From Spirochaetia bacterium (GTDB lineage Bacteria > Spirochaetota > Spirochaetia > SZUA-6 > Bin103), in contig OZ241863.1 of NCBI GenBank assembly GCA_965203055.1, positions 1,152,001-1,216,000 on the forward strand: a stretch of 64,000 bases of DNA, read 5' to 3'. The notes under the pieces were generated by a model. The model did not search any database, was not told the DNA's origin, and saw only the letters and a list, made by a program, of their open reading frames with translations. Below are positions 5,618 through 64,000 of the stretch, piece by piece (the first letter of the stretch is position 1; every line of letters begins with the position of its first letter). Made by a program: the position numbers and the translations under genes.

Positions 5618-6009
5618 ATGTCGTCAAGATGACATACTGCCCAGAATAGGCGACTTCTCGGCGCGATTGTTCTGGAATGGTAGCCGCGGATCAGATTCGA
5701 GACGGTAGGCGGCGGCGGTACTGATCCCGCGCCTTGGCGGCGGCTAGGCCCTTTGCGAGCGGGCCGGCCACGGTCACCGGCCGAGAAGGCCCACGGGGTC
5801 GCCGTCGCGCCCTCTGACTACGAGTCGGGGCTACGCTCCCTTTCCGCCGCCCCGCAGGAGGCCCCTCCACCCTCTTGTATTGCAGGCGTCCTACTCGCCT
5901 ACACCTTGAATGTCGCTTGAATCAGGCCGACCCGTGGGCGCACTCGGCTAGCATGGTGATGCAGCGTCGGAAGCCTTGCCGCGTCCTTCCGGAACGACGT
6001 TGCCATGCT

Positions 6010-6125
6010 CGCCGCCAATCGCCGTTCGGCAAGTGGGACTCGATTGTCCGAGACCTCGCCATGACCCTGGCGGCCGTCGATCGGCTGGTGCATCGCGCGA
6101 CCATCTTCCGAATCATTGTCGATTA
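6010..6125 (+). pseudogene. IS21-family IstB (ATP-binding helper) 3' fragment
   Basis: PFGKWDSIVRDLAMTLAAVDRLVHRATIF matches the IstB C-terminal motif; the rest of the gene is absent. Confidence 0.7.
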
Positions 6126-6469
6126 CTGTTGTTACCGCTGCCGATTTGAATGAAACTCCTATTGTTGATTTGCACCAAGCTCTCTTGTATGGCCTTCATG
6201 TCGGCGCGCAGTTCGGCTGTGTCGGTCTTGACCTCGGCAGTGTCGGTTTTGACATCGACGCCTAGCGCGCGAACATCGGCGCGTAAATTTCGTATGTCAG
6301 CGCTCAGTACGAGTACGGCGACAAGGATGGTCAGCAACATTGCTATAAACTGAACGGTTTGCCTGATCGGCTTAGGGCGCCTGGGCTCCGGGTGGCCGTG
6401 CGTCTTGTCTTCCAGGAGTCCTTTCCAGCCCTCGGGAGGAGCGCTCCTGCCGGCCATCAGCGTCCCCAA
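6113..6469 (-). CDS. Hypothetical small protein with single TM and heptad coiled coil (possibly 5'-frameshifted)
   Basis: Hydrophobic FIAMLLTILVAVLVL followed by a duplicated VKTDTAE heptad; an SD+ATG near 6591 is in another frame. Confidence 0.45.
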   Translation of the reverse strand: MGTLMAGRSAPPEGWKGLLEDKTHGHPEPRRPKPIRQTVQFIAMLLTILVAVLVLSADIRNLRADVRALGVDVKTDTAEVKTDTAELRADMKAIQESLVQINNRSFIQIGSGNNSNRQ

Positions 6470-7199: not shown

Positions 7200-7730
7200 T
7201 GAGGTGGTCCCGGAAATTGGACAAGGAGGTTAAGGTGTATTCCAGGCCATGAGGAGGGCCGATGGGATGGCGACGAGACGGCGCCGATTCACAGCACAGT
7301 TCAAAGCCACGGCGAGCCGGAGGTCTTCAAACACCGATCAGGGCAGCCAGTTCACCAGCAGGGCGTTCACGGGGCAGTTGGAGGCGGCCGGGATACGCTG
7401 CTTGATGGACGGTCGTGGGCGCTGCCTGGACAACGTGTTCATCGAGCGGCTGTGGCGGTCGTTGAAGTATGAGGCGGTGTACCTGCACGAGTTGGCGGAC
7501 GGCTTCGCGGCGCAGCGCGTGATCGCGGAGTGGATGGAGTTCTACAACGAGGTACGCCCCCCACTCGGCGCTGGACGGGCGGACGCCAGCGGAGGCGTAC
7601 TGCGGCGTGGCGGCGCCGGCCGGGCAGGTGGCGTAGCGAGATGGGAAGGGGTGCAAACTGCAAGCACCGGGAACGGAGCGAGTGGCTGCGCACCGCGGAG
7701 CGGGAGTTGTCCACATATCCACAGGGGTTT
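7200..7730 (+). mobile_element. Internally deleted IS3-family remnant
   Basis: Left end TGAGGTGGTCCCGGAAATTGGACA; OrfA start MATRRRRFTAQFKA fused to the OrfB DDE core NTDQGSQFTS...DNVFIERLWRSLKYE; no right IR found. Confidence 0.85.
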
Positions 7731-8243: not shown

Positions 8244-8569
8244 GCGCCCCTTACCAGCCGGCCCGGCCGGGGGCGACGATTTCGGATTCCTTGAGCACCA
8301 CGTCGTGGGCGCCGGCCTCGCGCAGGCTGGTAGGGGAGACCACCGTCAGGCGCGCTTCGCGGTGCAGGGCGGTGAGGTCGGTGACCCCGCAGTTGGCACA
8401 TGGTGCTCTTGATCTTGCTCAGCGTCTAGTTGAGGTTGTCGCGCAGCTTGCCGGCGTAGGGCACGTAGCCGTCCCCCCTCCTCGAAGGCGAATCCGGCGG
8501 CCGGCGCTTGGCCGTCGTAGCGCTGCCAGTTGCGCGCCTTGATGTGCCCTCGCCCCAGTACTCCTTGAC
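8244..8569 (-). pseudogene. Degenerate duplicate of the guaB 3' end
   Basis: Near-identical to 9905-10232 with +1, -2 and -1 indels. Confidence 0.9.
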
Positions 8570-8758: not shown

Positions 8759-9820
8759 TCAGGTGGATCTGCGGCCTATCAATGCCTCGAGTTCGGCCAC
8801 CCGCGCTTCGGCCGCTTGGCGAGCGGCCGCTTCCTGTTGGACGCGGGTTTCTACGGCTTGGCGAGCGGCCGCTTCCTGTTGGACGCGGGTTTCTGCGGCT
8901 TGGCGAGCGGCCGCTTCCTGTTGGACGCGGGTTTCTGCGGCCTGGCGAGCGGCTGCTTCCTGTTGGACGCGGGTTTCTGCGGCTTGGCGAGCGGCCGCTT
9001 CCTGCTCTGCGCGCTGCTGTTGCTGCTCTGCGCGCTGCTTGCCGGTGGGGATCAACTCGCCGTGCGCGTCCGTCCAGCGCAGCCACCGGCTGCGCACGCC
9101 CTCGAACTCCCCCTCCCACAGCGTCATCCCCAGCCCCAGCTCCGGGAACCAGGGCCGCCCTCCCTGGCGTTCGTATGTCCCGGCGCTCAACCGAAAGACG
9201 CGCAGCTCATCGCGCATCACCTGCCGCAACGGATCGGAGACCACGTAGTAGCCAATCCCCATCCGGGCGTACCTCTTCCGCTTATCCCCAATCTCATTGC
9301 CCTTCTGGTTGGACACGATTTCCACCACCAGGTCCGGCACTTTGCCGAACTCCCACACCAAGTAGGAGCGGTGTTCCTTGTCCCACCAGTTCTCGTGCAC
9401 CTGCACGTCCAGACTGAGGAACACGTCGGGCACGATCGCCGGATTGCGCGGTGCGGGGAACACGCCCACGTTGGCGGCGGCCAGAAACGGGCGCCCGCCG
9501 CCGGGGCCGGCCCAGGAAGTGTACAGCGGCTCGGTGAGCAGGCGTTGCTGCTTCTCGGAGGGCAGGTTGTCCACCGGCGTATCATCCTCGGTCACCAGGG
9601 ATTCGATGTCGCTGTCGAGCGCCGGCACGGACCGCGTAGCGGCGTTGCGCGCGGCCCGGACCGGGGCGGCCGGCGGCGCGTTCGCCAGCGGCCGCGCGGG
9701 CCGGGGCGCCGGAGACCGGTCGGGCCTGCGAACCACGTCCGGCGCCGGCCGCGCCGTGACGGGTTCGGCGGCGCGCGCGTCAGGCGCGGAACGACCGGTC
9801 GGGAATGACGGCGAGTCCAT
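8759..9820 (-). CDS. Uma2 family endonuclease with coiled-coil tail
   Basis: EDDTPVDNLPSEKQQRLLTEPLY, VPDVFLSLDV, FGKVPDLVVEIVSN, YYVVSDP motifs. Confidence 0.9.
   Translation of the reverse strand: MDSPSFPTGRSAPDARAAEPVTARPAPDVVRRPDRSPAPRPARPLANAPPAAPVRAARNAATRSVPALDSDIESLVTEDDTPVDNLPSEKQQRLLTEPLYTSWAGPGGGRPFLAAANVGVFPAPRNPAIVPDVFLSLDVQVHENWWDKEHRSYLVWEFGKVPDLVVEIVSNQKGNEIGDKRKRYARMGIGYYVVSDPLRQVMRDELRVFRLSAGTYERQGGRPWFPELGLGMTLWEGEFEGVRSRWLRWTDAHGELIPTGKQRAEQQQQRAEQEAAARQAAETRVQQEAAARQAAETRVQQEAAARQAAETRVQQEAAARQAVETRVQQEAAARQAAEARVAELEALIGRRST
8816..9005 (-). repeat. 42-bp coding tandem repeat (~4.5 copies; QEAAARQAAETRVQ)
   Basis: Units begin at 8816, 8858, 8900, 8942 and 8984. Confidence 0.95.
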
Positions 9821-9911
9821 AGGGCAGACTATACCGTACCGGCGCCGCGGCCGAAAGCGCTTGACGATCGGATACACGACATGCCGTTGCGCCGGACCGT
9901 GGTACGCGCCC

Positions 9912-11435
9912 CTACCAGCCGGCCCCGCCGGGGGCGACGATTTCGGATTCCTTGAGCACCACGTCGTGGGCGCCGGCCTCGCGCAGGCTGGTGGAGGAGA
10001 CCACCGTCAGGCGCGCTTCGCGGTGCAGCGCGGCGAGGTCGGTGACCCCGCAGTTGCACATCGTGCTCTTGATCTTGCTCAGCGTCTGGTTGAGGTTGTC
10101 GCGCAGCTCGCCGGCGTAGGGCACGTAGCCGTCCACCCCCTCCTCGAAGGCGAGTCCGGCGGCCGGCGCCTGGCCGTCGTAGCGCTGCCAGTTGCGCGCC
10201 TTGATGGTGCCTTCGCCCCAGTACTCCTTGACGAAGTTGGTGCCCATGCGCAGGCGCGGCGCGGGGCTCTCGTCGAAGCGCGCGAAGTAGCGGCCCATCA
10301 TCACGCAGTCCGCGCCCATGGCCAGCGCCAGGGTGATGTGATAGTCGTGGAAGATGCCGCCGTCGGCGCAGATGGGGATGTACTGGCCGCTCTCCCGGAA
10401 CAGCCGGTCACGGGCGGCGGCCACGTCCAGCACCGCGCTGGCCTGCCCGCGGCCCAGTCCCTTCTGCTCGCGGGTGATGCAGATGGAACCGGGGCCGACG
10501 CCCACCTTGACGAAGTCGGCGCCCGCCGCGGCGAGGTAGCGGAACCCCTCGCCGTCCACCACGTTGCCGGCGCCGATGCTCACCGCGTCCCCGTACCGCT
10601 CCCGCACCCACGCCAGGCAGTCGCGCTGAAACTCCGAGAAGCCGTCGGAGGAGTCGATGCACAGCACGTCCACGCCCGCTTCCAGGAGACTGGGCACGCG
10701 CTCGCGGTAGTCGTGGGTGTTGATGCCCGCGCCGACCATCAGCCGCTTCTCGTGGTCGATCAGCTCGTCCGGGTTCTCCTTGTGCTCGTCGTAGTCCTTG
10801 CGGAACACGAGGTAGCGCAGGCGGCGTTCGCCGTCGATGATCGGCAGGCAGTTGAGGCGGTGCTCCCAGATCAGGTTGTTGGCCTCGGTCAGGGAGATGC
10901 CGTCGCGGCCGTACACCAGCTCCTCGAAGGGGGTCATCATCCGCGCCACCGGTTGCTCCGGGGCGACGTGGCCGATGCGGTAGTCGCGCCCGGTCAGGAT
11001 GCCCAGCAGGCGGCCGTCCGCGGCGCCGTTGTCGGTGACCGCCATGGTGGTGTGGCCGGTGGCCCGGCTGCGGTCCAGCACGTCGCGCAGCGTGGCCTGC
11101 GGCGTGACGTTGGTGTCGCTGACCACGAATCCGGCCTTGAACTTCTTGACCCGGCGCACCATCTCCGCCTGGTCCGCGATCGGCTGCGAGGTGAAGATGA
11201 ACGCCAGGCCGCCGCTGCGGGCCAGGGCCACCGCCATGGTGTCGTCCGACACCGACTGCATCATTGCCGAGACCAGCGGTACGTTCAGGGTGAGCCCCGC
11301 GGCCGCCGGCGGCCGCCGGCGGGTCAGCGGCGAGCGCAGGCTGACGTTGGCGGGGATGCACTCCCGCCGCGTCAGGTTGGGGAGCAGCAGATACTCGCTG
11401 AAGGTGCGCGAGATCCCGGGTATTACGATGGCCAT
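9912..11435 (-). CDS. guaB: IMP dehydrogenase
   Basis: [11 protein letters not shown] pair, [14 protein letters not shown] active site, [22 protein letters not shown]. Confidence 0.95.
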
Positions 11436-11558
11436 GGCGTTCTCCTCTCGCAGGTGGCGTGGCACGGCGGCCCGCCGGCGCGCGGCGCGGCGGCGGGCGG
11501 GCGGAATCGGTGGGAGCGTGCGCGCCCCGCGGCCCGCGCGCGGCGGCGCCGGCGCTGA

Positions 11559-12632
11559 TCAGCCTGCGGCGAGCTGGCCCTGGGGCGCACGCAACGCGCC
11601 GGTGAGCATACGCTCGGTCGTGTCCCAACTGATGCACTCGTCGGTAATCGAGACGCCGTAGCGCAGTTCGCTGGGGTCCTCGGGGATGCTCTGGCGGCCT
11701 TCGAACAGGTTGCTCTCCAGCATGGCGCCGATGATCGGACTGGACGCGGCGGCGGACTGCGCCCGCTGTTCCAGCACGCTGTTCCAGGCGGTCTCCTGAT
11801 TCCGGTGCTTCTTGCCGGAGTTGTCGTGGCTGCAGTCCACCATCAGCACGGGGGACAGTCCGGCGCGTCTCAGCAAGCCGACCGCGGCGCGCACGCTGGC
11901 GGCGTCGTAGTTGGCGCCGTTGCGCCCGCCGCGCAGGATCACGTGGCCGATCCGGTTGCCGCGCGTGCTCACCACGCCGATGCGCCCGTCCTGATCGAGG
12001 CCCAGGAAGCGGTGCGGATCGCGCGCCGACACGATGGCGTCGACCGCCACCTGGAGATTGCCGTCGGTGGAGTTCTTGAAGCCGACCGGCATCGACAGGC
12101 CGCTGGCCATTTCGCGATGCGTCTGCGACTCGGTGGTGCGCGCCCCGACCGCGGCCCAGGACACCAGATCGTCGGTGTACTGGGGAACGATCGGGTCGAG
12201 CACCTCGGTCGCCGTGGGGAGCCCCAGTTCGTTGATCGCCAGCAGAATGCGGCGGGCGATGCGGAGTCCTTCGGGAATGTCCGACGAGTAGTCGAGATGG
12301 GGGTCGATGATCATCCCGCGCCAGCCCACCGTGGTGCGCGGCTTCTCGAAGTAGACCCGCATGATCACGAACAGCTCATCCTGCACGCGGGCCGCCAGCT
12401 CGGCCAGCCGGGCGGCGTACTCCAGCGCCGCGCCCTCGTCATGGATCGAACAGGGGCCGACGATCACCAGCAGGCGCGGATCGCGCCGGGCGAGGATGTC
12501 CGCCACCGTGTTCCGCGCCCGCACCACCGTCCGGTTGGCGGCGGGCCGCATCGGCAACTCCTCCTTGAGCGCCCGCGGCGAAGTAAGCGGCTCGATGGCC
12601 AGCACGTTGAGATCGAAAGTACGCTGCATCAT
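11559..12632 (-). CDS. 3-deoxy-7-phosphoheptulonate synthase, class I (AroF/G/H type)
   Basis: GPCSIHD, MRVYFEKPRTTVGW, GARTTESQTHRE, DCSHDNS, YGVSITDECI. Confidence 0.95.
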   Translation of the reverse strand: MMQRTFDLNVLAIEPLTSPRALKEELPMRPAANRTVVRARNTVADILARRDPRLLVIVGPCSIHDEGAALEYAARLAELAARVQDELFVIMRVYFEKPRTTVGWRGMIIDPHLDYSSDIPEGLRIARRILLAINELGLPTATEVLDPIVPQYTDDLVSWAAVGARTTESQTHREMASGLSMPVGFKNSTDGNLQVAVDAIVSARDPHRFLGLDQDGRIGVVSTRGNRIGHVILRGGRNGANYDAASVRAAVGLLRRAGLSPVLMVDCSHDNSGKKHRNQETAWNSVLEQRAQSAAASSPIIGAMLESNLFEGRQSIPEDPSELRYGVSITDECISWDTTERMLTGALRAPQGQLAAG

Positions 12633-12746: not shown

Positions 12747-13376
12747 TCACGCTCCGGCGGTCGGGGCGTCAAAGCATGCCGCCACGCCGGCGGCCAGGCC
12801 GGGGAGCAGCGGCGACCGCGCCGTTGCGCCGCGTCCGTACACCCCGTGCTCGACGTACGCGCCGTCCTGCAGCGTGAGCACGACGATCGTCGCAGCGCGC
12901 GGATCGGCGATCCAGTACTCGGCGATGCCCGCCTCCGCGTAGTCCGCCCGTTTCTCCACCAAGTCCCGAGCGGGATCGTCCGGGCTGACCACCTCCGCTA
13001 CCAGGTCCGCCCCTAGCCAGTAGGGATTCCGGCAGCGCGGATCCGTGCGACTCCGCAGTAGCAGAAGATCGGGCTCGCGGAACTTGCCCGCGCGGATGCG
13101 CATGCGCAACGGGGCGACCATCACGACCCCGCCGCGCGGCTGCAGGTAGCCGTGGAACAGGCCGTAGAGGAACAGAAGCACGGCCTGGTGCCCGAAGGTG
13201 GGCATCGGCAATTCCTGTACGTGGCCGTCGGTGAACTCGATCAGACGATTGCTGTGGTCGGTGAGCCACAGGTAGGCAGCCTCGCTCCAGGCGCCTTGCG
13301 GCGGCAGGACGTCGCGCAACAGCGCGTTCAGCGCCTCCTGGGAGGTCGGCGCTGCCGGCACAGATTCGGTGGTCAC
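12747..13376 (-). CDS. Uma2 family endonuclease
   Basis: IEFTDG, MPTFGHQ, REPDLL, ADLVAEVVSP, KRADYAEAGIAEYWIADP; GTG start inferred (ORF open to 13409). Confidence 0.9.
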   Translation of the reverse strand: MTTESVPAAPTSQEALNALLRDVLPPQGAWSEAAYLWLTDHSNRLIEFTDGHVQELPMPTFGHQAVLLFLYGLFHGYLQPRGGVVMVAPLRMRIRAGKFREPDLLLLRSRTDPRCRNPYWLGADLVAEVVSPDDPARDLVEKRADYAEAGIAEYWIADPRAATIVVLTLQDGAYVEHGVYGRGATARSPLLPGLAAGVAACFDAPTAGA

Positions 13377-13465
13377 GGTTGACGTTTCCTGCCCCCTCTC
13401 AACTGCCAACTTACCGCAAACCCCGGACCGCGTTCAAACGGCGGCCCACCGTTCGGGCGCACTTC

Positions 13466-13655
13466 GTTAGTACCGATCCCGCCCTCGAAGCCGCCGGAAG
13501 GCGTACTACGAGTACCGCGCCGCGCCGGGGCCGTGAGAAGAAACCCTGCCGCTCGACGCCGGCGACATTCTCGGCAGTAGCATCTGACGGAACGTCTATC
13601 CGCTTGGAAATGCGCCGCCTAGTCACGCCCGCAGGTGGCATCTCTCGGGCCGAAT
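13466..13655 (+). ncRNA. Candidate structured non-coding RNA/leader of the HNH element
   Basis: Conserved in both copies without a conserved ORF; several stems kept while loops vary. Confidence 0.35.
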
Positions 13656-13656
13656 A

Positions 13657-13693
13657 ACTTGACTCAAGTAGTTCCCATGATTATACTTATGTC
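13657..13693 (+). promoter_or_regulatory. Sigma70 promoter (TTGACT-17-TATACT) for leaderless mRNA, overlapped by palindrome ACTTGA-C-TCAAGT
   Basis: -35 at 13659-13664, -10 at 13682-13687, ATG 7 nt downstream with no SD; conserved in copy 2. Confidence 0.8.
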
Positions 13694-15043
13694 ATGAGCA
13701 AACATGCTTCTGACGGTGCCATCACGACTACCGTTTCCGCCCTTTCAGACGACCGCTTGCTGGCGCGGACCAAGGAACTTTCCGGCATCGAACACCATCT
13801 CGAAGTGGTCGTCATCGACCACCTGCGCGAGATTCAGAAGCGCCGCCTGTATCTGCGCCTTGGCTTTTCGAGCCTGTTCGACTACGCGGTGCGCGAACTG
13901 GGTTACAGCGACGCCGCAGCGTGGCGGCGCATCAAGGCGATGCGGCTCTGCGCGGACGTCGACGGCGTGCGCGAGCGCCTGCAGAATGGCGAGATGACGC
14001 TGAACGCGGCCGCGCAGTTGCAGCATGCGTTCGACCGGCAGGAGCGCAAGAAGGAACGCGCGGCGCGCAGCGCGCCGGGCGGGGCCGGGTTCGGGGCTGC
14101 CGCCCAGTCGCAGAACGGCTCGGCGCCGCCGCGGCCGGCGGAGCGGAAGCCGGCGGCGGTGCTGGACCCGGAGGCGCGGCGGGAGCTGGTGGAGCAGGCG
14201 TCCGGCAAGAGCAGCCGGGAGGTGACGCAGTTGCTGGCCGAGATGGACCCGGAGCTGGCGGCGCCGGCGGAGCGGGTGCGGCCGCTGGGCGGCGGGCGCT
14301 GGGAACTCAAGGCGGTGATCGACGATGAGTGCCGGCGGGGCTTGGAGCGGCTCAAGGGCCTCCTGTCTCACGTCGATCCGCACATGACGATGGGGCAGCT
14401 CATGGAGCGGCTGGTGCGGGAAGGGCTCGACCGCCACGACCCGGCCCGGCCGCCGCGCGGGCGGCGCGCCGCGCCGGCCAAAGGCGCCGAGCAAACTTCG
14501 GCGCCGAAGACGCAGGCAGCCTCGGCTCGCGGCGCTGCCTCGGCAGCGAAGCAGGAGGCCGGCGCGGACAGCGCCGCTCCTTCGGCGGCGAAGGTATCGG
14601 TTCAGGCGGCGGCCCAGCTGGAAGACGAAGCCGCTGACCGCTCGGACACTTCGGCAGCGAAGCCGGCGACCGACACCACTTCGGCGCCGAAGACGCGGCG
14701 CCTCGGCCGGCCGGCTGCGGCGTGCGCGCAGCCGGCTGCGCCGCTGCGGACCCGGACTTCGGCAGCGAAGCCGGGCGTGAGCGGCCGCGCGATCCCGGCG
14801 GCGGTCAAGCGCGAGGTGTGGCGGCGCGACCGGGGCCGCTGCCGCTACGTGGACCGCGCCAGCGGGCGCCGCTGCGGCTCGCAACACCTGCTGCAGATCG
14901 ATCACGTCGTGCCGTATGCCTGCGGCGGCGCCGCCGAGCCGAACAATCTCCGGCTGCTGTGCGCCGCCCATCACCGCTACCGCCATGCCGGCGCCGGATT
15001 CGGCCGCCCCGGCGAGGATCGTCAGGTGCCGGTAGACCGGTAA
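13694..15043 (+). CDS. HNH endonuclease with DUF222-like N-terminal domain
   Basis: LSDDRLL...HLREIQKRRLYLRLGFSSLFDYAVRELGYS N-domain; C-terminal IPAAVKREVWRRDRGRC...C...IDHVVPYACGG...NLRLLCAAHH. Confidence 0.9.
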   Translation: MSKHASDGAITTTVSALSDDRLLARTKELSGIEHHLEVVVIDHLREIQKRRLYLRLGFSSLFDYAVRELGYSDAAAWRRIKAMRLCADVDGVRERLQNGEMTLNAAAQLQHAFDRQERKKERAARSAPGGAGFGAAAQSQNGSAPPRPAERKPAAVLDPEARRELVEQASGKSSREVTQLLAEMDPELAAPAERVRPLGGGRWELKAVIDDECRRGLERLKGLLSHVDPHMTMGQLMERLVREGLDRHDPARPPRGRRAAPAKGAEQTSAPKTQAASARGAASAAKQEAGADSAAPSAAKVSVQAAAQLEDEAADRSDTSAAKPATDTTSAPKTRRLGRPAAACAQPAAPLRTRTSAAKPGVSGRAIPAAVKREVWRRDRGRCRYVDRASGRRCGSQHLLQIDHVVPYACGGAAEPNNLRLLCAAHHRYRHAGAGFGRPGEDRQVPVDR

Positions 15044-15330
15044 TCAAGATCGCCGAGAAACGTCCTCTTGTACTGGGGACTGGGGACTTGGGCTTAGCCG
15101 CCAAGCGGCCCGACGCTCACCTGCATTTTGGAAGTGCGCCCCCACCCGTCGGGCGAGCGGAGGGCGGCGGACCCGATACACCGAACCGGCGGTAGCGCCT
15201 CGGCAGGACCTCCAACCGCCGCCCGCGGCCGCTCCTGTACGTACTCGGCGCGTCTTGTGTGGTAGATCGGTCTGACGGAATACGGCATATCGCCATAGCT
15301 GCCATTGAAATCCTTGCTGCGCGCCGGAGG

Positions 15331-15615
15331 TCATAGGGTCTGCGCCTCTTGCAGCACGCGGTCTAGGAGGTCGGGATGGAGGCTCTTTTCGGTTACTACT
15401 TCCACCCGGCGGTGCAGGAGATCTTGCACGTCCATGAGCAGGCCGCCGAGAGCGAGGCCCGTTTTCTCGGGCGGAAGCGTCACCAGCAGGTCGACGTCGC
15501 TGCCATCGCCGGCATCTCCCCTTGCCATGGACCCGAACACGCGTACCTCGCGGATGCCGTGGCGCTTGGCGATGGCGAGAATCCGCGTACGGTGTCGGTC
15601 GATCACGGGGTGCAT
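15331..15615 (-). CDS. Minimal nucleotidyltransferase (MNT antitoxin-type), no HEPN partner visible
   Basis: VFGSMARGD...SDVDLLV, VEVVTEKSL. Confidence 0.9.
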   Translation of the reverse strand: MHPVIDRHRTRILAIAKRHGIREVRVFGSMARGDAGDGSDVDLLVTLPPEKTGLALGGLLMDVQDLLHRRVEVVTEKSLHPDLLDRVLQEAQTL

Positions 15616-15904
15616 TTGATCTCTGGCGAGGGTACCGGGAAGCCGGCACGCGGCTCAACCGCGACCTTGCAGGTACGTGGTCACGATCGCGGCTTCTCAG
15701 CGGGGTAGCGGGTGGTGGGTCAGCGGCCGGGGCTGGCGGCCCGGCCGCGGCCGTATTCGTTGGCGGGGTTGCGGTAGATCGAGTGGTAATGGCCGCCGGC
15801 GGCGGCGAGGGCGCCGGCCAGCGAACGAATCGAGCGCGTCATATGCCGATTGCGCACGAAACGACCGGTGCGGGACGGCTGCGGTTCGCGCTACAGTACG
15901 CGGG

Positions 15905-37076: not shown

Positions 37077-39638
37077 TCAGCCGGCCAGCAGTTCGGTGAG
37101 GCGGCGCTGCCACTCGGCTTCGTCCACCACCTCGAAGCGCATGGTCTTGCCGCGCATCGCCGGCACGAATTCGGCCCAGTCGCGCCGGGTGGCGTGGCGC
37201 GAGCACAGGTCGAACACCGAGCGCTTGTATTCGGTGTCCGCCGCCTCCTGCAGATGGAGGCCCTTGGTCTCGATCACGAACACCTGATGAAATGCATCGG
37301 TCGCGTCCGCTTCGTCCGGCTTCAACGTGAAGATGAAGTCGGCGTAGATGCGGCCGCGCTTCCAGCCCTGCACGTAGTAGTCCTGGCGCGCCCGGTTGCG
37401 GTACCAGAAGAACAGGCGTTCCTGTCGATCCAGGAAGGTCGCCACGCGGTGCTCCAGCTCGTTCATGGGGTCGTCGCCGGCGCGGTCGAACAGATCGAGT
37501 TGGAACGGGCCGCCGTCCCGGCGGTTGGCCGGCGGCGCCGCGGCCCGGAGCTGCCGGGGCAGGCGGTTGAAGCCAAGGTCGTTGGCCGCCACGATGAAGC
37601 GCATCGCGCCGGACTCCAGCAGCCCGGTGAACACGCCGCGCGCCAGCCGGTCGCGTTCGGCCTCCAGGCGCTTGCGCAGCTCTTCCAGGATGAAGCCGTA
37701 GTTGCGCACCACCAGCGGGCGCGGATGGCGCTCCAGGAGGGCGCCGAAGACGCGCCGCGCCAGCGCGCTGCCGCGCCACGGATTGGGCATCACGTCCAGC
37801 AGGTGGCCGGCGGCGAACGCATGGTCCAGGCGGGCGTCGACCGCGGCGGCGGAGCCCGCGGCGGAGCCGGCGGAGGAGCGGGCGGCGGCTGCCGCGGCCG
37901 ACGACTCCACGCGGCCGTCCACGCCGATCCGCAGCTCGATGCCGCCTTCCGGGCGCTCGCCGAGCGGCAGGTCGAACAGCGGGCTCACGTCGACCTCATC
38001 CCACGCCGCCCGCGCCAGCAGGTCCGCCTCGTAGTGCGCGGGCCGCCACTCGCCCCGGTCGCGGATCATGAACGCCGGCAGCACCAGGTCGCGCGCGGCC
38101 CGCCGGAAGCGCGCGCGCTGGCGCCGCGCCGCGGGCCGGTCCGGCTGCACCGGGCCGTCTTCGACGGCGACCACGTTCGCTTGCAGGTCGCCCAGCCCCT
38201 CGCGCCCGAAGCCGCGGCGCACCTCCTGCAGCAGCTCGGCGCCGCGGCGCCGAAAGCAGAACACGTAGCTCTCGTCCAGCCAGCGGTCACCGGTCTTGCG
38301 CGCGTAGGGCTGGCGCAGGATGCGGCCGACGAGCTGCGTCAACGCGGTCTTCGAGCCGGGGCGGGTCAGGATCGCCAGCACGTAGGCGAACGCGCAGTCC
38401 CATCCCTCCTGCAGCGCCTGTTTGGTGATGATGAAGCGGATCGGGCAGTCGCGCGCCAGCAGACCGCCGGCGTCGTCCACCTCCTTCAGGTCGTCGCGGG
38501 CGCTGGTCTTGACGGCGACGTGCTCGGGGTTGACGGCGGGATGCTGCAGCAGGTACTCGCGGGCGTCCTCGGCGTGCACCACGCCGGGCTGCCGCTGGTC
38601 GCGGCCGGTGCGCTCCACCTGGATCAGGCAGATCGGGCGGATGCGCAGGCCGGTGGCCGCGGCGTGGCGCCGCGCGCGTTCCTCCAGCTTCGCGCGGTGC
38701 TCCACCGCGGCCAGCAGGGTGTCCTTCCAGCTCGCGCCGGAGCGGTTGCCGACGTGCAGGTCGAGCTTGATCATCTCCTCCGCGTGCAGGTCGCGGCCCA
38801 CGACCTCGATCAGCACGTTGGCCTGCGGCGCCGGGGTGGCGGACAGCTCCACGATCAGGCAGGGATTGAACCCCTCCAGCGTCGCCTTGGCGTTGCGGCT
38901 GTACGCCTTGTGCCCCTCGTCCAGCACGATCAGCGGGCGCAGCAGGCGCAGCGTGTTGCCCAGCGAGGTCTTGATCTGGCGGCCCCGGAAGCCGCCGGCG
39001 ACATCGTCGAAGGTGTCGAGGTTGGGGATGCGTTCCAGCAGCGCGCGGTGGCCGGCCGCGTCGTGGTCGGCGGGGAAGAAGCGGTCGAACCCGCCGCTGT
39101 CGCGGAACATCCGCAGTTGTTCCCTGGTCTCGCGGTTGGCCGAAGGCAGCATCAGCAGCAGGATGCAGAGGTTGTCGGCCACGTCGGCCGGGCTGAAGCC
39201 GTGGCGCTTCTCCAGCAGCAGGGTGCGGCCGGCGGAGGCCAGGTCGAGTTGGTGCCGGTAGGGGTGGCTGCGGTCCTTGAGCGCCGCCAGGGTCTGGCGG
39301 TAGATCTGGACGGTCGGGACCACCCACAGCACCAGACCGGTCGGCCGGAACAGGAACGAGCCGTTCACCAGACCGATCACGCGGGTGGCCAGCAGGGTCT
39401 TGCCGCCGCCGGTCGGGATCTTGAGGCAGAAGGCGGGCAACGGCTCGCCGCTGCCGGTGGTCCGCGCGGCGTAGGGCCGCGCCGGCCGGCTCCGCTCCCA
39501 CGCCCGGCGCGCCCAGTCGAAGCCGAATTCGGGATCGGCCGCGCGGGCGCGGGCGTCGGTCCGGCGCGCCTCGGCGAGCGCTTCGAGCAGGTTCCGCACC
39601 GCCGCCAGCACCCGCCGCTGGTACTCCTTGAGGATCAT
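37077..39638 (-). CDS. Type III restriction endonuclease Res subunit
   Basis: PTGGGKT Walker A, DEGH, SATP, LQEGWD, QLVGRILRQP, C-terminal ADF...IETKG nuclease motif. Confidence 0.92.
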   Translation of the reverse strand: MILKEYQRRVLAAVRNLLEALAEARRTDARARAADPEFGFDWARRAWERSRPARPYAARTTGSGEPLPAFCLKIPTGGGKTLLATRVIGLVNGSFLFRPTGLVLWVVPTVQIYRQTLAALKDRSHPYRHQLDLASAGRTLLLEKRHGFSPADVADNLCILLLMLPSANRETREQLRMFRDSGGFDRFFPADHDAAGHRALLERIPNLDTFDDVAGGFRGRQIKTSLGNTLRLLRPLIVLDEGHKAYSRNAKATLEGFNPCLIVELSATPAPQANVLIEVVGRDLHAEEMIKLDLHVGNRSGASWKDTLLAAVEHRAKLEERARRHAAATGLRIRPICLIQVERTGRDQRQPGVVHAEDAREYLLQHPAVNPEHVAVKTSARDDLKEVDDAGGLLARDCPIRFIITKQALQEGWDCAFAYVLAILTRPGSKTALTQLVGRILRQPYARKTGDRWLDESYVFCFRRRGAELLQEVRRGFGREGLGDLQANVVAVEDGPVQPDRPAARRQRARFRRAARDLVLPAFMIRDRGEWRPAHYEADLLARAAWDEVDVSPLFDLPLGERPEGGIELRIGVDGRVESSAAAAAARSSAGSAAGSAAAVDARLDHAFAAGHLLDVMPNPWRGSALARRVFGALLERHPRPLVVRNYGFILEELRKRLEAERDRLARGVFTGLLESGAMRFIVAANDLGFNRLPRQLRAAAPPANRRDGGPFQLDLFDRAGDDPMNELEHRVATFLDRQERLFFWYRNRARQDYYVQGWKRGRIYADFIFTLKPDEADATDAFHQVFVIETKGLHLQEAADTEYKRSVFDLCSRHATRRDWAEFVPAMRGKTMRFEVVDEAEWQRRLTELLAG

Positions 39639-41287
39639 CGCGCGGGGGGCGGGCCGTCGCGCTGCGCGCCGCGGGCGGCGGTCTGGTAGATCTGGAACGG
39701 CAACTGGCAGAAGGTGATGCGGTTTTCGTCCAGGAAGTCCTGGTCCAGGTAGCGGGCGGGCGCGAACACCAGCCGCCGCCGGTCACGGTGCGGAGGCAGC
39801 GAGCGGGCGAACTCCAGCGTCAGCGCCAACTCCTTGAGCCGCTCCGCGTCCGGTTCGTAGATCAGATACACGTCGCCGCGCGGGCTGCTGCCGATGAAGC
39901 CGGTGGCGCGGTCGACCGCGCCGGGATCGAACTGGTCGCCGGTGGCGGTGAAGAACACGTAGCCGGCCAGCGCCGCGTAGTCGGGCAGATTCGCCTCGTC
40001 CAGCAACGATTCCTGGCGCATCGGCCCGCCCAGCACGAAGTAGCTGAAGGTGCCGCCGAGCCCCTGCCGCAGCGCCGCGTCGCGGGCGGACGGCACGCCG
40101 GCGATGACGCGGCGCACGCGCTCGGCGGTGATGGAGTCGGCGTAGCCTTCGCATTCGATCAGCACGAAGCGCCGGTTGCCGCCGTCCTCCCGGTTCAGCG
40201 CCAGCACCGCGTGCGCCGTGGTCCCGGAACCGGCGAACGAATCGAGCACGATCGAATCCCGGTCCGTGGCGATGCGCAGGATGTGCTTGACGAGTGCGGT
40301 CGGCTTGACCGTGTTGAACACGTCTTCCGAGCGCTCGAAGTCCAGCACGCCGACCAGCTCCTTCTTGGCTTCCTGCGTATGGCCGACTTCGGCATGCGGC
40401 CATATCGTCTGCGGTATGACGCCCTGCCGTACTTCGGAAAGATACCGCTTCAACCGCGGCATGCCGGCGCCGTCCGGCCCCCACCAGATGCGGTTCTCCG
40501 CATTTAGCTCGGCGAACCGATCCGGCGAGACGCGAAAGTAATTGCCGACCGACGGCCGGAACGTCTTGCCGGAAGGACTGGTCACTTCATACGTGCCGAG
40601 GCGGTAGTAGTTCCGGGCGGTCAGATCGCTCGATGACCACGCGCCGCGCGGGTCGTCGTCCGGGTTCCGGTAGCGGCTCGCCGCCTGCGCGCTGCGCTGC
40701 AGCAGATGCGGCTTCCATTGGTCCGCGTCCTGCGCGTAGATGACGATGAAGTCGTGGTCTTCGGAGAAGTGTCTGGCCGTGTTCCGCGGCGAAAAGTTCT
40801 TCTGCCAGACGACGGTCGCCAGGAAGTTTTCGACGCCGAATACTTCGTCCATCAGGGCGCGCAGGTGATGGACCTCATGGTCGTCGATGGAGACGAAGAT
40901 GGCGCCGTCGGGACGGAGCAGCTCGCGCAGGAGCTTCAGCCGCGGCAGCATCATGCAGCACCACTTGTCGTGCCGGGTCAGGTCGTCGCGGTCGACCGTC
41001 TTGCCGAGCCAGGCGCGCATCATCGGCGAGTTGACGTTGTCGTTGTAGGCCCAACCCTCGTTGCCGGTGTTGTAGGGCGGATCGACGTAGATGCACTTGA
41101 CGCGGTTGTGATAGACCGGCAGCAGCGCCTTCAGCGCCGCCAGATTGTCGCCGTGCACGATCAGGTTGTCGTGCAGGCTCGCCGGCCTGCTCAGCCCCTT
41201 GTCCGCCGCCGGCCGCAGGTCATGGAACGGCACCGTCAGATGATGATTCTCGACGAACGTCCTACCCTTGAACTGCAACGACGGCAT
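39635..41287 (-). CDS. Type III R-M N6-adenine methyltransferase Mod subunit
   Basis: Start MPSLQFKG at 41287; YVDPPYNTG, LDSFAGSGTT; ATGA overlap with res. Confidence 0.93.
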   Translation of the reverse strand: MPSLQFKGRTFVENHHLTVPFHDLRPAADKGLSRPASLHDNLIVHGDNLAALKALLPVYHNRVKCIYVDPPYNTGNEGWAYNDNVNSPMMRAWLGKTVDRDDLTRHDKWCCMMLPRLKLLRELLRPDGAIFVSIDDHEVHHLRALMDEVFGVENFLATVVWQKNFSPRNTARHFSEDHDFIVIYAQDADQWKPHLLQRSAQAASRYRNPDDDPRGAWSSSDLTARNYYRLGTYEVTSPSGKTFRPSVGNYFRVSPDRFAELNAENRIWWGPDGAGMPRLKRYLSEVRQGVIPQTIWPHAEVGHTQEAKKELVGVLDFERSEDVFNTVKPTALVKHILRIATDRDSIVLDSFAGSGTTAHAVLALNREDGGNRRFVLIECEGYADSITAERVRRVIAGVPSARDAALRQGLGGTFSYFVLGGPMRQESLLDEANLPDYAALAGYVFFTATGDQFDPGAVDRATGFIGSSPRGDVYLIYEPDAERLKELALTLEFARSLPPHRDRRRLVFAPARYLDQDFLDENRITFCQLPFQIYQTAARGAQRDGPPPAR

Positions 41288-42653
41288 TGCTGGATCGGCC
41301 TGCGCAACGGCCACGCATCGGGTCCGAGGGTTCCTCGGGCGCGTCCGCTTCGGCCCGAAGTCTATTCCCAAACGAACCGACACGTCCAGGGGCCGCATTG
41401 CCTGGGCGCATTCCAAAATGTAGGTAAGCATCGGGCCGCTTGGCGGCCAAGCCCAAGTCCCAGTGATCACCGCAGCGGCGCCCGCTGGCGCGGTCCACGT
41501 AGCGGCAGCGGCCGCGGTCGCGCCGCCACACCTCGCGCTTGACCGCCGCCGGGATGGCGCGGCCGGTCACGCCCGTCTTCGCTGCCGAAGTCCGGGGCCG
41601 CGGCGCGGCAGCCGGCTGCGCGCACGCCGCAGCCGGCCGGTCGAGGCGCCGCGTCTTCGCCGCCGAAGTGGCGTCGGTCGCCGGCTTCGCTGCCGAAGTG
41701 TCCGGGCGGTCAGCGGCTTCGTCTCCCGGCTCCGCCGGCGCCTGAGCCTGAGCCGATACCTTCGCCGCCGAAGGAGCGGCGCTGTCCGCGCCGCGAGCCG
41801 AGGCCGCCTGCGTCTTCGGCGCCGAAGTTTGCTCGGCTCCTTTGGCCGGCGCGGCGCGCCGCCCGCGTGGCGGCCGGGCCGGGTCGTGGCGGTCGAGCCC
41901 TTCCCGCACCAGCCGCCCCATGAGCTGCCCCATCGTAATGTGCGGATCGACGTGGGACAGGAGGCCCTTGAGCCGCTCCAGGCCGCGCCGGCACTCATCG
42001 TCGATCACCGCCTTGAGTTCCCAGCGCCCGCCGCCCAGGGGCCGCACCCGATCCGCCGGCGCCGCCAGCTCCGGGTCCACCTCGGCCAGCAACTGCATCA
42101 CCTGCCGGCTGCTCTTGCCGGACGCCTGCTCCACCAGCTCCCGCCGCGCCTCCGCGTCCAGTACCGGCGCCGGCTCCGGCGCCGGCTTCCGCTCCGCCGG
42201 CCGCGGCGGCCGCGGCGGCGGCGGCGAGCCCTCCTGCGACTGAGCGGCTGCCCCGAACCCGGCCCCGCTCGGCGCGCTGCGCGCCGCGCGTTCCTTCTTG
42301 CGCTCCTGCCGGTCGAACGCATGCTGCAACTGCGCGGCCGCATTCAGCGTCATCGTGCCATTCCGCAGGCGCTCGCGCACGCCGTCGACGTCAGCGCAGA
42401 GGCGCATCGCCTTGATGCGCCGCCACGCTGCGGCGTCGCTGTAACCCAGTTCGCGCACCGCGTAATCGAACAGGCTCGAGAACCCGCGGCGCAGATACAG
42501 GCGGCGCTTCTGGATCTCGCGCAGGTGGTCGATGACGACCACTTCGAGATGGTGTTCGATGCGGGAAAGTTCCTTGGTCCGCTCCAGCAAGCGGTCGTCT
42601 GAGAGGGCGGATACGGTAGTGGTTACGGCCTCGTCTGAAGCATGATTGTTCAT
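41262..42653 (-). pseudogene. HNH element ORF copy 2, HNH active site deleted, reads through the right end
   Basis: Near-identical to 13694-14878, then RRCG-DHWDLG jumps to the right-end sequence. Confidence 0.85.
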
Positions 42654-42897
42654 GACATAAGTATAATCATGGAAACTACTTGAGTCAAGTTATCCGGCCC
42701 GGAATATGCCACCTGCGGGCGTGACTCGGCGGCGCATTTCCAAGCGGATAAGTTCCGTCAGATGCTACCGCCGAGAATGTCGCCGGCGTCGGGCGGCAGG
42801 GTTTCTTCTTACGGCCCCAGGCGGCCTCGTCGATCTCCTTACGCCTTTCCGGCGGCTTCGAGGGCGGGACCGGTACCAACAAATTGGAAGTGCGCCC
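41404..42897 (-). mobile_element. TIR-bounded HNH-endonuclease element, copy 2 (defective, inverted)
   Basis: GGGCGCATTCCAAAATG from 41404 and CAAATTGGAAGTGCGCCC ending 42897. Confidence 0.75.
42654..42690 (-). promoter_or_regulatory. Sigma70 promoter TTGACT-17-TATACT (leaderless), copy 2
   Basis: -35 at 42688-42683, -10 at 42665-42660, ATG at 42653. Confidence 0.8.
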
Positions 42898-42967: not shown

Positions 42968-43774
42968 ATGACCAGCTCCACGCTCGCTCCCGCCGCTATC
43001 GAGTACCCCACCGAGGACGGTGTCCCTCTGGCCGAATCCGATTACCAAGCCATCCCCCTCATGTACGCGGTCACCGGACTGCGCGACTTCTTCCGCCGCC
43101 GCCCCGACGTCTACGTGTCGGGCAACCTGCTGGTCTACTACGAGGAGGGCAACGTCGATGCGTCGGTAGCACCCGACGTGTTCGTGGTGTTCGGGGTGCC
43201 GAGCCACCGCCGGCCGATCTACAAGGTGTGGGAGGAGGGCAAGAGCCCCGACTTCGTAATGGAGATCACCTCGAATCACACCCGGGATGAGGACGAGGGG
43301 CCGAAGCGGGAGTTGTATGAGTCGCTGGGGGTGCGGGAGTACTGGCAATACGATCCGACGGGAGACTACCTGGAGCCGCCGTTGCGCTGCTTGAGTCTGG
43401 TGCGCGGGGAGTACGAGGAGTTGACGGAGACGCGGCTGGGGGACGGGTCGCTGGTGATGTACAGCGCGGTGCTGGGGCTGGAAGTGCGGGTCGAGGAAGG
43501 GGGGCTGCGCTTTCGCGACCCTGAGACGGGAGAGAGCATATCGACGTTCACCGAGCTACGACAGGGGCGGCAGCAGGCGCGGCAGCAGGCGGAGCTGGCG
43601 CGGCAGCAGGCGGAACAGGCGCAGCGCCAGGCGGAAGACGCGCGCCGGGCCGCGGAAGCGCGCCTGGAACGGGAAGTGGCGGCCCGGCAGGCCGCGGCGG
43701 CGCAGGTGGCGGAGCTGCAGGCATTGCTGGCGCGGCGGCCCGAGCCGGGCGCCGACTCCGGTCCGGGAGGGTAG
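42968..43774 (+). CDS. Uma2 family endonuclease with coiled-coil tail
   Basis: YPTEDGVPLAES, APDVFVVFGV, PDFVMEITS, LGVREYWQYDP. Confidence 0.92.
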   Translation: MTSSTLAPAAIEYPTEDGVPLAESDYQAIPLMYAVTGLRDFFRRRPDVYVSGNLLVYYEEGNVDASVAPDVFVVFGVPSHRRPIYKVWEEGKSPDFVMEITSNHTRDEDEGPKRELYESLGVREYWQYDPTGDYLEPPLRCLSLVRGEYEELTETRLGDGSLVMYSAVLGLEVRVEEGGLRFRDPETGESISTFTELRQGRQQARQQAELARQQAEQAQRQAEDARRAAEARLEREVAARQAAAAQVAELQALLARRPEPGADSGPGG

Positions 43775-61717: not shown

Positions 61718-61742
61718 CGATGCGGACGCACGAGCCATGCGG

Positions 61743-63554: not shown

Positions 63555-64000
63555 CACACGCGCCGCGCCGGACCGTCGTCGGCCGGGACCTCTGCGCCGG
63601 CCGGGACCTCTGCGCCACGCACCTCTGAGTCGTGCACCAGCTCCCAGCCGCGGAACACCAGCGCCAGCCCCTTGAACGCCGCCTCCGGGTGCCGGCGCGC
63701 CAGCCGGCGGTCCGTCAGGTAGCGGCGCGCCTGCGCCTCCGCCGCGGCGGCCTGCGCCGCTACCTGCGCCTGCGCCGCGCTGCGGGGCAGGTACTTCAGC
63801 TCGATCACGTAGCCGTAGCGCATGCCCGGATAGGGCAGCGCGCGCGGTTCCAGCACCAGGTCGGCGTAGCCCTTGGCCAACTCCAGCTCGGTGTGCAGCA
63901 CGAAGTAGGGGGAGATGCTCAGGTAGGCGGCCACGAAGCCCTGCAGCATCTTCTCGCCCTGCAGGTAGTCGCGCACGCCGGTCTGCTCGGCTACCGCCGC
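63554..64000 (-). CDS. AAA-ATPase-like + PD-(D/E)XK nuclease protein, copy C (5' part outside window)
   Basis: 63560-64000 matches 61749-62189. Confidence 0.9.
   Translation of the reverse strand, partial: AAVAEQTGVRDYLQGEKMLQGFVAAYLSISPYFVLHTELELAKGYADLVLEPRALPYPGMRYGYVIELKYLPRSAAQAQVAAQAAAAEAQARRYLTDRRLARRHPEAAFKGLALVFRGWELVHDSEVRGAEVPAGAEVPADDGPARRV

Follow-up and report, generated by a model that had tools for sequence, protein, structure and literature searches.

The DNA analysed here, referred to as the window, is a stretch of 64,000 nt from contig OZ241863.1 (positions 1,152,001 to 1,216,000), which belongs to a genome assigned to a Spirochaetia bacterium. The window contains two copies, in opposite orientation, of a unit that is bounded by terminal inverted repeats (TIRs) and is built around a gene whose product carries an HNH nuclease domain at its C-terminus. 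We designate these units W1 (copy 1) and W2 (copy 2). A sequence-only reading of the window had taken them for a distinct, transposase-free selfish element that encodes only an HNH endonuclease. Relatives were collected by a genome scan, which returned 24 loci (handles L001 and onwards), of which 18 are located on OZ241907.1, a metagenome-assembled genome (MAG) labelled Spirochaetia and termed here the sister genome. The remaining loci come from two more MAGs labelled Spirochaetia and from one labelled Eisenbacteria. The window and the 24 loci, fetched with 10 kb on each side, together amount to 552 kb; about 10% of the sister genome was covered in this way. The features of the two units are as follows (aa, amino acids; ORF, open reading frame).

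13455..15141, + strand: W1, the whole TIR-bounded unit (limits of homology with W2 and with sister-genome copies)
13455..13465, + strand: left TIR of W1, shortened by a 6-nt loss; the full form, as in W2, is GGGCGCACTTCCAATTTGTTGGTA (comparison of ends)
13472..13587, + strand: decayed 3' end of an MmeI-family type IIG restriction-modification gene in W1 (mapped to protein P0273)
13604..13617, - strand: inner copy of the end motif in W1, CGGCGCATTTCCAA (motif scan; L001 and L012 begin ~10 nt upstream)
13659..13687, + strand: sigma-70-like promoter TTGACT-17-TATACT (10 of 12 consensus matches; 1 site against 0.1 expected)
13694..15043, + strand: ORF P0001, 449 aa (N-domain ~15-250, linker ~251-362, HNH domain 393-431)
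14496..14770, + strand: six 14-nt palindromes, CTTCGGC[R][GC]CGAAG, starting at 14496, 14538, 14580, 14649, 14679 and 14757
15036..15058, + strand: scrap of a type I specificity gene, hsdS (codons ..PVIKIAE..), overlapping the HNH stop codon; 95.7% identical over 23 nt to L011
15059..15141, + strand: right module of 83 nt ending in the right TIR, common to W2, L001 and L012; its last ~30 nt are common to a solo end in L015
15118-15141, + strand: right TIR of W1, outermost bases ...GGAAGTGCGCCC (comparison of ends)
41404..42897, - strand: W2, the same TIR-bounded unit inverted, with the HNH core deleted (pseudogene; homology with W1)
41404..41426, - strand: right TIR of W2, with a 1-nt loss (comparison of ends)
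42764..42874, - strand: MmeI-family gene remnant in W2, blocks TGPALEAAGKA / IDEAAWGRKKKPCR / PPDAGDILGGS
42874..42897, - strand: left TIR of W2, full form (comparison of ends)

Two inverted copies and their termini

The cores of W1 and W2 are 94.5% identical, and a repeat finder resolved the pair into inverted-repeat arms of 604 nt (90% identity), 412 nt (94%) and 279 nt (94%). Homology begins on the left at GGGCGCAC..., at position 13455 in W1 and at 42897, on the minus strand, in W2, and it ends on the right at ...TGCGCCC, at 15141 in W1 and 41404 in W2. The DNA outside these limits is unrelated. The existence of two inverted copies, with about 94% identity, identical inverted termini and unrelated flanks, is thus borne out, as is the abrupt stop of homology at both ends of each. 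All four end sequences agree with the original description, including the loss of 6 nt at the left end of W1; the right end of W2 lacks 1 nt. W2 retains both ends, but its gene is not intact. The HNH core is missing from it through a deletion of about 195 nt that spans ~14878 to ~15072 in W1 coordinates, and the remaining reading frame of 463 aa continues into the flank and has no Pfam match; W2 is therefore a pseudogene. A composite transposon made up of W1 and W2 was considered and rejected, because the 26 kb between them have ordinary G+C content and contain housekeeping genes, among them genes for seryl-tRNA synthetase, an ammonium transporter and other transporters.

When all collected ends were compared, the inverted repeat, GGGCGCAYTTCCAAWWTGTWGGTA, was found to extend over about 24 nt at both ends of W1 and of W2; the corresponding motif for matching on both strands is GGGCGCAYTTCCAAWWTGT. 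The repeat of 18 bp that had been proposed is therefore real but longer, and it is accompanied by a third copy of its motif inside each unit, at 13604-13617 in W1 and 42730-42743 in W2. This inner copy is direct with respect to the right end and inverted with respect to the left end. When up to 2 mismatches are allowed, the window contains four matches to the 14-mer GGGCGCACTTCCAA, where 0.82 would be expected; only 1 of 100 shuffled sequences reached this number, and two of the four matches are the inner copies.

Across two genomes, five left and five right junctions have identical outermost bases, and in every case the DNA beyond is unrelated. The left end is present in W1, W2, L014 and L002, and at the edge of the L006 locus, where a further copy lies beyond the fetched DNA; the right end is present in W1, W2, L001 and L012, and as a solo sequence of ~30 nt in L015. 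The junction consensus is GGGCGCA(C/T)TTCCAA, from which the L015 solo end (GAGCGCA...) deviates at one base. A solo end of this sort is the kind of scar left by insertion sequence (IS) elements. Ten junctions that are exact to the base next to unrelated DNA have the look of real element termini, and in this respect the claim of genuine termini holds. The assignment of the ends to the HNH gene itself is not supported. W1 and W2 are the only units with both ends. Among the 15 full-length copies of the sister genome, none has both, 2 have the left end only, 2 the right end only and 11 have neither, so that most other copies of the gene do not share these ends.

Searches with Pfam and NCBIfam revealed no DDE, HUH, tyrosine or serine recombinase domain in the element, in which HNH was the only match; the description of the unit as recombinase-free therefore stands. 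No recombinase was found beside the element among the window ORFs scanned. The 64-kb window contains no tRNA genes, so a tRNA target is not supported, and no Rfam family, HEARO/omega RNA included, reached its gathering score in the window. When the right module and two segments of the 239 nt upstream of the gene were folded as DNA, the results were unremarkable in comparison with shuffled sequences (z-scores of +0.57, +0.94 and -0.64). Ends consisting of structured RNA or single-stranded DNA were rejected on the basis of these Rfam and folding results.

The HNH gene unit and the debris around it

The HNH gene of W1 has a promoter of its own, whose -10 hexamer ends 6 nt before the ATG at 13694. 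With so short a distance between the -10 hexamer and the ATG, the mRNA is predicted to be leaderless. The layout from promoter to ATG is kept in all 17 copies that we aligned (W1, W2 and the 15 full-length copies from OZ241907.1), as well as in two loci from another species, L016 and L019, whose proteins are 54-60% identical. The only Pfam match in P0001 is the HNH domain (PF01844, residues 393-431, nt 14870-14986, E = 2.5e-6). No match to DUF222 (PF02720) was obtained for P0001, even when E values up to 10 were allowed for the first 258 residues. The HNH domain is present in 28 of 30 relatives of P0001, and one of the 30, P0264, passes the Pfam threshold for DUF222 (27.2 bits against a cut-off of 24.4). 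In addition, a look-alike cluster in the ESM Atlas (score 0.95) bears the name DUF222, and PF02720 occurs in 12% of its members. The protein had been described as DUF222-like/HNH; the C-terminal HNH domain is clearly there, but the connection to DUF222 is a remote one, made through one relative and the ESM Atlas cluster and not through P0001 itself.

A structural model of the whole protein, with a mean predicted local distance difference test (pLDDT) score of 76.6, predicts a confident helical N-domain and a confident HNH domain separated by a disordered linker, of which residues 271-360 fall below a pLDDT of 50. Modelled alone, the N-domain (residues 1-255) reached a mean pLDDT of 87.5. Fold searches of the PDB returned no match at E <= 0.001. 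DNA-binding domains of ParB, Noc and SopB head the list for the N-domain at non-significant E values of 0.27-4, and the apparent likeness of the model to these domains is taken as a lead only. Prediction of the N-domain structure, which had been suggested as a check, thus provides a confident helical fold but no significant counterpart in the PDB. A profile search of PDB sequences matched HNH domains alone. The HNH region is likewise the only part of the protein matched in PADLOC (2 weak matches, E = 0.001 and 0.0073) and in PHROGs, where 15 families match. For ten intact copies, the ratio of nonsynonymous to synonymous substitution rates (dN/dS) is 0.17 in the N-domain, 0.39 in the second helical part, 0.38 in the HNH domain and 0.79 in the linker. 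These values indicate that the HNH protein has been maintained by purifying selection in many paralogues.

The six 14-nt palindromes of W1 all lie in one reading frame (x-Ser-Ala-Ala/Pro-Lys), and each HNH ORF has four to six of them in its linker. We compared the codons used in 68 instances from 13 ORFs with those of seven window genes as background. The codon preceding Ser is NCT in 66 of the 68 instances (ACT 48, CCT 12, GCT 6), whereas the NCT share of Thr, Pro and Ala codons in the background is ~1.8%. Ser is encoded by TCG in all but one of the 68 instances (67), whereas the share of TCG in the background is 31%, and the Ala codon that follows is GCG or GCA and never GCC, which makes up 49% of background Ala codons. 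This codon use shows that the palindromes are constrained at the nucleotide level and not at the amino-acid level. Five perfect palindromes are present in L016 (10902-11227; 54% protein identity), despite a linker that cannot otherwise be aligned. The 24 fetched loci (~488 kb) contain 93 palindromes, and every one of them, like every one in the window, falls within an HNH copy or fragment; 4 of 6 HNH fragments with truncated 5' ends begin at an internal palindrome. The palindromes could be protein-binding sites, points of breakage or recombination, or RNA hairpins; they are unlike the terminal repeat. Middle or 3' fragments of the HNH gene also lie near full copies, at L004:10014-10197, L010:10018-10218, L003:12770-13274, L005:3627-3766 and L016:17465-17690, and several of these start exactly at an internal palindrome.

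Between the termini the gene stands in a patchwork, the order of which is the ~24-nt repeat, the decayed 3' end of an MmeI-family gene, the HNH unit, the 23-nt hsdS scrap and 83 nt that end in the repeat. In W1 the MmeI remnant consists of three collinear blocks in different frames (TDPALEAAG / KAYYEYRAA / GREKKPCR ... LPLDAGDILGSS) and ends on the enzyme's own stop codon, TGA at 13585-13587. The remnant in W2 has internal deletions unlike those of W1. The longest left module is found in L014. Its 56-aa translation matches 13 proteins at E <= 0.01 in a word-based protein search, and 11 of these are proteins of 712-1477 aa with the Pfam domains of the Eco57I/MmeI methylase, target-recognition and C-terminal regions; identity is 72-90% over the aligned 70% of the query, and it amounts to 85-90% for the C-termini of those proteins of 1070-1477 aa that have PF02384/PF07669/PF20466/PF20473. 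NCBIfam gave no match to the pseudogene peptides of L014. In W1, W2 and L014 the MmeI fragment begins right after the repeat and at the same codon, corresponding to about residue 1178 of P0273. Residues ~1271-1312 of P0273 are missing in all four copies with a mappable remnant (W1, W2, L002 and L014), and each of the four has further deletions that differ from copy to copy. The shared start and shared deletion, combined with the copy-specific losses, suggest that one ancestral shell was copied and then decayed independently.

The debris on the other side of the gene derives from hsdS. L011 (9968-12577) has a complete orphan hsdS (11273-12577, 434 aa, Methylase_S E = 3e-15) that begins ~60 nt beyond its HNH copy. 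W1 has a remnant of hsdS 3' of the HNH stop codon, as do 10 copies at 9 loci of the sister genome (L002, L003 twice, L005, L006, L007, L008, L010, L011 and L014). On a ruler based on L011 the remnants end at 132, 177, 297, 306, 308, 326, 331 and 369-371, and several have an identical internal deletion. The complete hsdS of L011, together with scraps of varying length elsewhere, suggests a progenitor locus in which the HNH gene stood between a restriction-modification gene of the MmeI family and hsdS; the window copies would then be a much-deleted version of this locus placed between inverted repeats. The right module of 83 nt has no identifiable match. It follows that the HNH gene is not the only cargo, as had been claimed, since the MmeI-family 3' end and the hsdS scrap also lie between the termini. 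It is the only intact gene there, the rest being pseudogene debris. Similarly, the 239 nt upstream of the gene are indeed common to both copies but are not featureless, as they include a pseudogene fragment and the promoter.

A word-based protein search with P0001 identified 1787 proteins at E <= 0.001 among 8000 scored candidates. The best 120 of the 1787 matches are 68-100% identical to P0001, and those 120 include at least 12 paralogues, P0001 among them, from the source contig of 4,557,819 bp (82-91% identity). An exhaustive search of representatives of 50%-identity clusters yielded 17,085 at E <= 0.001 and 911 at E <= 1e-30. The 17 aligned copies have in common a diverged leader of ~40-70 nt, the promoter, the leaderless ATG, the ORF and a short tail. 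They form an A-type clade (W1, W2, L001, L002, L012 and L014; 93-95% mutual identity) and a B-type clade comprising the other 11 copies (90-94%), with 87-89% DNA identity between the clades. The closest pair of copies is ~95% identical, and every pair is at least 5% apart. Of the 15 copies in the sister genome, 10 retain a long ORF that includes the HNH motif, 3 are frameshifted and short, and for 2 our script returned no stop codon. Synonymous divergence (dS) among A-type copies is ~0.12 between genomes and 0.09 within the sister genome. The dS of the ammonium transporter gene between genomes is 0.49, a comparison with a single chromosomal gene that carries little weight. The left extents of the copies are subfamily-specific, and L014 is a mosaic that combines an A-type left end with a B-type tail.

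Left and right flanks were compared systematically for 16 copies, with W2 left out. The sole case of a repeat was L001, which is flanked by an imperfect direct repeat of ~58 nt (L001:9833-9895 and L001:11388-11450). For the 11 B-type copies, no inverted or direct flanking repeat within ~-265/+330 nt exceeded the between-copy background (mean score 9.0). No 13-mer in the flanks of +-3 kb is common to three or more loci, except for those in the A-type module, the hsdS scraps and the HNH fragments. A separate inverted-repeat shell for the B-type copies was rejected on the basis of the flank comparison and the 13-mer census. The outer flanks of the junctions yielded no consensus.

Possible histories of the locus and its neighbours

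The entity that is repeated and selected is the gene unit, consisting of leader, promoter, leaderless ATG and a protein of 440-500 aa; the mycobacterial REP13E12 proteins are members of the same broad family. In the A-type lineage alone, the unit sits in the ~24-nt TIR shell. Because the shell also contains scraps of restriction genes, and because the gene is repeated in relatives that do not have the ends, the inverted ends probably belong not to the gene but to a decayed, transposase-less transposon that carries it. We favour, with a probability of about one half, the interpretation that W1 and W2 represent a non-autonomous, internally deleted TIR shell, similar to a mobile insertion cassette (MIC), with a REP13E12-like gene on board that also spreads or persists in some other way. 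A larger TIR transposon may have picked up, or may have been built around, a segment with the order MmeI-family gene, HNH gene and hsdS. Internal deletions would have turned this transposon into a non-autonomous shell, and deletion is frequent in these loci. Movement of the shell would have depended on a transposase that acts in trans on the repeats and whose gene lies elsewhere or has since been lost. Copies without TIRs may be older shells whose ends have been deleted, or the products of a second, HNH-dependent route. As every pair of copies differs by at least 5%, the element would now be largely inactive.

Several observations weigh against a carrier shell. No target-site duplication was seen by eye at W1 or W2, either directly or when inversion between the two was allowed for. 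No cognate element that combines the same repeats with a transposase was found in the 552 kb. The complete shell is absent from the sister-genome loci, where left-only and right-only forms occur, so that W1 and W2 alone speak for movement of the shell as a unit. Window positions 15124-15815 are homologous to L014:8944-9676 in opposite orientation, such that the right repeat of W1 corresponds to the left repeat of L014; the homology comprises the end and ~690 nt of flank and takes in the beginning of a sulfate permease gene. Two explanations offer themselves: use of one and the same site in both orientations, or inversion of the element where it stood. This arrangement fits no simple history and is not predicted by simple cut-and-paste transposition. 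The A-type HNH protein could itself recognise the repeats, given that A-type proteins and repeats co-occur, and flank remnants of variable length could equally result from a copying mechanism with imprecise ends.

The ragged 3' extents, the mosaic ends, the mid-gene fragments, the direct repeat of L001 and the dS contrast point to a route of the gene's own. An alternative history, which we consider less likely, is that the HNH gene spreads itself and that the TIRs are incidental. The nuclease would break DNA, perhaps at the 14-nt palindromes within its own gene or at sites like them, and repair would copy the gene together with a variable length of donor flank. The restriction-modification debris would represent this flank, which in one lineage would happen to terminate in inverted repeats. 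Such a history is consistent with the presence in every copy of the gene's own promoter and of an ORF under purifying selection, with hsdS remnants that stop at 8 points and left extents that depend on the subfamily, with the A-type left end and B-type tail of L014, and with palindromes that are confined to HNH copies and fragments and at which most of the 5'-truncated fragments start. The lower dS of A-type copies than of the ammonium transporter (~0.12 against 0.49, in a single comparison) is in the same direction, and REP13E12 loci are reported as gene-conversion hotspots in Mycobacterium tuberculosis in the accessible text of PMC13061034. It leaves unexplained, however, why 10 junctions fall at exactly the same base of a 24-nt repeat. 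Moreover, all copies are at least 5% diverged, we found no activity reported for any member of the family, and the fetched loci supplied neither a target consensus nor an empty site. The search for empty-site alleles, which had also been suggested, consisted of BLAST comparisons of the window with the loci and of the loci with each other; it gave no clean case, and the syntenic pair L010/L016 differs by a mixed insert of 3.3 kb.

A more specific proposal is that the DUF222-like/HNH unit is an autonomous, transposase-free selfish gene, in which the N-domain would recognise the linker palindromes, the HNH domain would nick or cut at them or at sites resembling them, and repair would copy the gene, along with ragged stretches of donor flank, to new locations and from one copy to another. 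We regard this version as somewhat less likely again. If true, it would provide a mechanism for REP13E12-type repeats in general, and it would explain the restriction-modification debris, the mosaic ends and the fragments that start at palindromes.

It is distinctly unlikely, in our view, that nothing here is mobile now and that the copies form an old family of paralogues that serves the host, possibly in connection with restriction-modification or defence. Ancient segmental duplications would have dispersed such a family, gene conversion would have preserved its similarity, and the repeats would be a relic. The absence of any pair of copies closer than ~95% and the purifying selection on many paralogues agree with this history, as do the very large size of the family (17,085 cluster representatives) and the restriction-modification neighbours of several copies, namely a type III Res/Mod pair by W2, hsdS in L011, an Eco57I-like gene in L005 and methylases in L011 and L012. 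A role in defence, however, found only the two weak PADLOC matches in the HNH region. The flanks are unrelated right up to sharp borders, many copies are truncated or frameshifted in the manner of decaying selfish elements, and similarity between genomes is above that of a chromosomal gene.

The least likely history is the one first proposed, in which the HNH protein is the transposase of a new TIR element and acts on its 24-nt ends. In its favour, the A-type protein clade co-occurs with the repeats, no other enzyme is encoded between the ends, and the inner end motif is situated 42 nt ahead of the promoter, so that a protein binding to it could regulate its own gene. Against it, 11 of the 15 full-length relatives, with 87-89% DNA identity, do not have such ends, unrelated pseudogene debris is present in the shell, and no target duplication was seen. 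The conserved palindrome of the gene does not resemble the repeat, and the ends fold no better than shuffled sequence. W2 keeps both ends without the HNH core, which is compatible with action in trans but means that the ends outlive the enzyme.

What had been presented as a distinct selfish HNH element thus has real inverted termini and no recombinase, but it appears to be a decayed shell around a gene of a known family. With passenger debris between the ends and family members that have no TIRs, our findings come close to one of the outcomes named at the outset as refuting that reading, a miniature inverted-repeat transposable element (MITE) that captured a passenger gene. A decayed carrier shell surrounding a repeat-family gene describes the locus better than does a new class of HNH-driven TIR transposon.

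A number of other features were observed in the window and the fetched loci. Genes of the Uma2 family ("putative restriction endonuclease") are located divergently beside the left ends, at 12747-13409 (-) by W1 and at 42968-43774 (+) by W2. Uma2 genes also occur near several sister-genome copies, at distances from adjacent to several kb, and next to the L015 solo end. A type III restriction-modification pair adjoins the right end of W2 (window 37077-41400, - strand):

37077-39638, - strand: ResIII helicase/nuclease ORF beside W2
39635-41470, - strand: N6_N4 methylase ORF beside W2, with its listed start inside the element

A further Uma2-family gene, at 8759-9877 (-), contains a 42-nt tandem repeat (8799-9013) and is flanked by a direct repeat of ~297 nt (8248-8544 and 9909-10206; 95-97% identical) that corresponds to the 3' end of an IMP dehydrogenase gene. 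The segment 8248-10206 looks like an insertion of the Uma2 gene with a very long target duplication. Three tandem units of ~1.83 kb, 74-93% identical, occupy window 59950-64000; the only ORF scanned in them, 61743-63557, encodes a protein with AAA-ATPase_like and PDDEXK_9 domains. An Rpn/YhgA-like "Transposase_31" gene (802-1899) and a short fragment of IstB, the IS21 helper (5875-6153), are also present in the window, and neither is tied to the inverted repeats. Finally, a repeat of 1.46 kb is 98% identical between L001:15237-16694 and L009:8056-9508 and 82% similar to window 7316-7639; the L001/L009 repeat is far more recent than any pair of HNH copies.

Comparison with known systems

Like classical insertion sequences with TIRs, W1 and W2 have inverted repeats at both ends and identical termini next to unrelated flanks; unlike them, they have no transposase gene and no target-site duplication. 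Non-autonomous MITEs and MICs that are moved by a cognate transposase have been described (PMC3129680, in its accessible text). The units resemble these elements, including MITEs with cargo and "transporter" ISs, in their IS-like TIRs of ~24 nt, in the lack of a transposase inside, in their passenger genes and solo ends, and in the occurrence of several copies with identical termini next to unrelated flanks. They differ in that no target-site duplication and, within 552 kb, no cognate autonomous IS was found, and in that the passenger gene is dispersed in its own right, most of its copies having no shell. A full-text literature search with the repeat sequence returned nothing on mobile elements. 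The IscB and TnpB (OMEGA) nucleases of IS200/IS605 elements are similar in that a nuclease rides on a mobile element without being its transposase. In contrast to IscB, however, no RuvC domain is present here (NF040563 scores 22.6 bits against a cut-off of 175, in the HNH region only), no HEARO/omega RNA in the window reached the Rfam gathering score, and the ends are inverted repeats and not subterminal hairpins.

The free-standing HNH homing endonuclease genes of phages offer another parallel to the gene unit. They too are lone HNH genes with a promoter of their own that lie by or between conserved genes, a position comparable to that in L011 and in the putative progenitor, where the HNH gene would stand between a restriction-modification gene and hsdS. 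Flanks of variable length accompany the gene, in a manner that resembles co-conversion tracts. The present family is unlike them in occupying many unrelated chromosomal sites in one genome, and no intact target or empty allele was found for it; its PHROGs matches are limited to the HNH region.

The REP13E12 repeats, in the accessible text of PMC10589994 and PMC13061034, are dispersed multi-copy loci prone to recombination between copies, and the latter describes them in M. tuberculosis as gene-conversion hotspots without a defined function. These DUF222-HNH loci and the gene unit described here are alike in being dispersed in many copies of ~1.4-1.7 kb, in encoding a helical N-domain and a C-terminal HNH domain, and in having no recognised transposase. 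P0001 differs in having no DUF222 match, and its host is a MAG of high G+C content with relatives labelled Spirochaetia. In the accessible portions of those reports we found no description of a leaderless consensus promoter, of palindromes constrained at the nucleotide level, of restriction-modification debris or of a TIR shell. For annotation, the comparison with W1 and W2 is a reminder that two copies with neat ends do not suffice to define a new class of transposon, and that the wider family should be aligned first. The M. tuberculosis genome already revealed dispersed DUF222-HNH repeats, which are still without a defined function according to the accessible text of PMC13061034. The present locus provides such repeats with a testable anatomy: a promoter, a protein under selection, constrained palindromes in a freely evolving linker, debris of a donor locus and one lineage packaged between TIRs. 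The most promising question it raises is that of the HNH gene and its internal palindromes as a self-propagating system.

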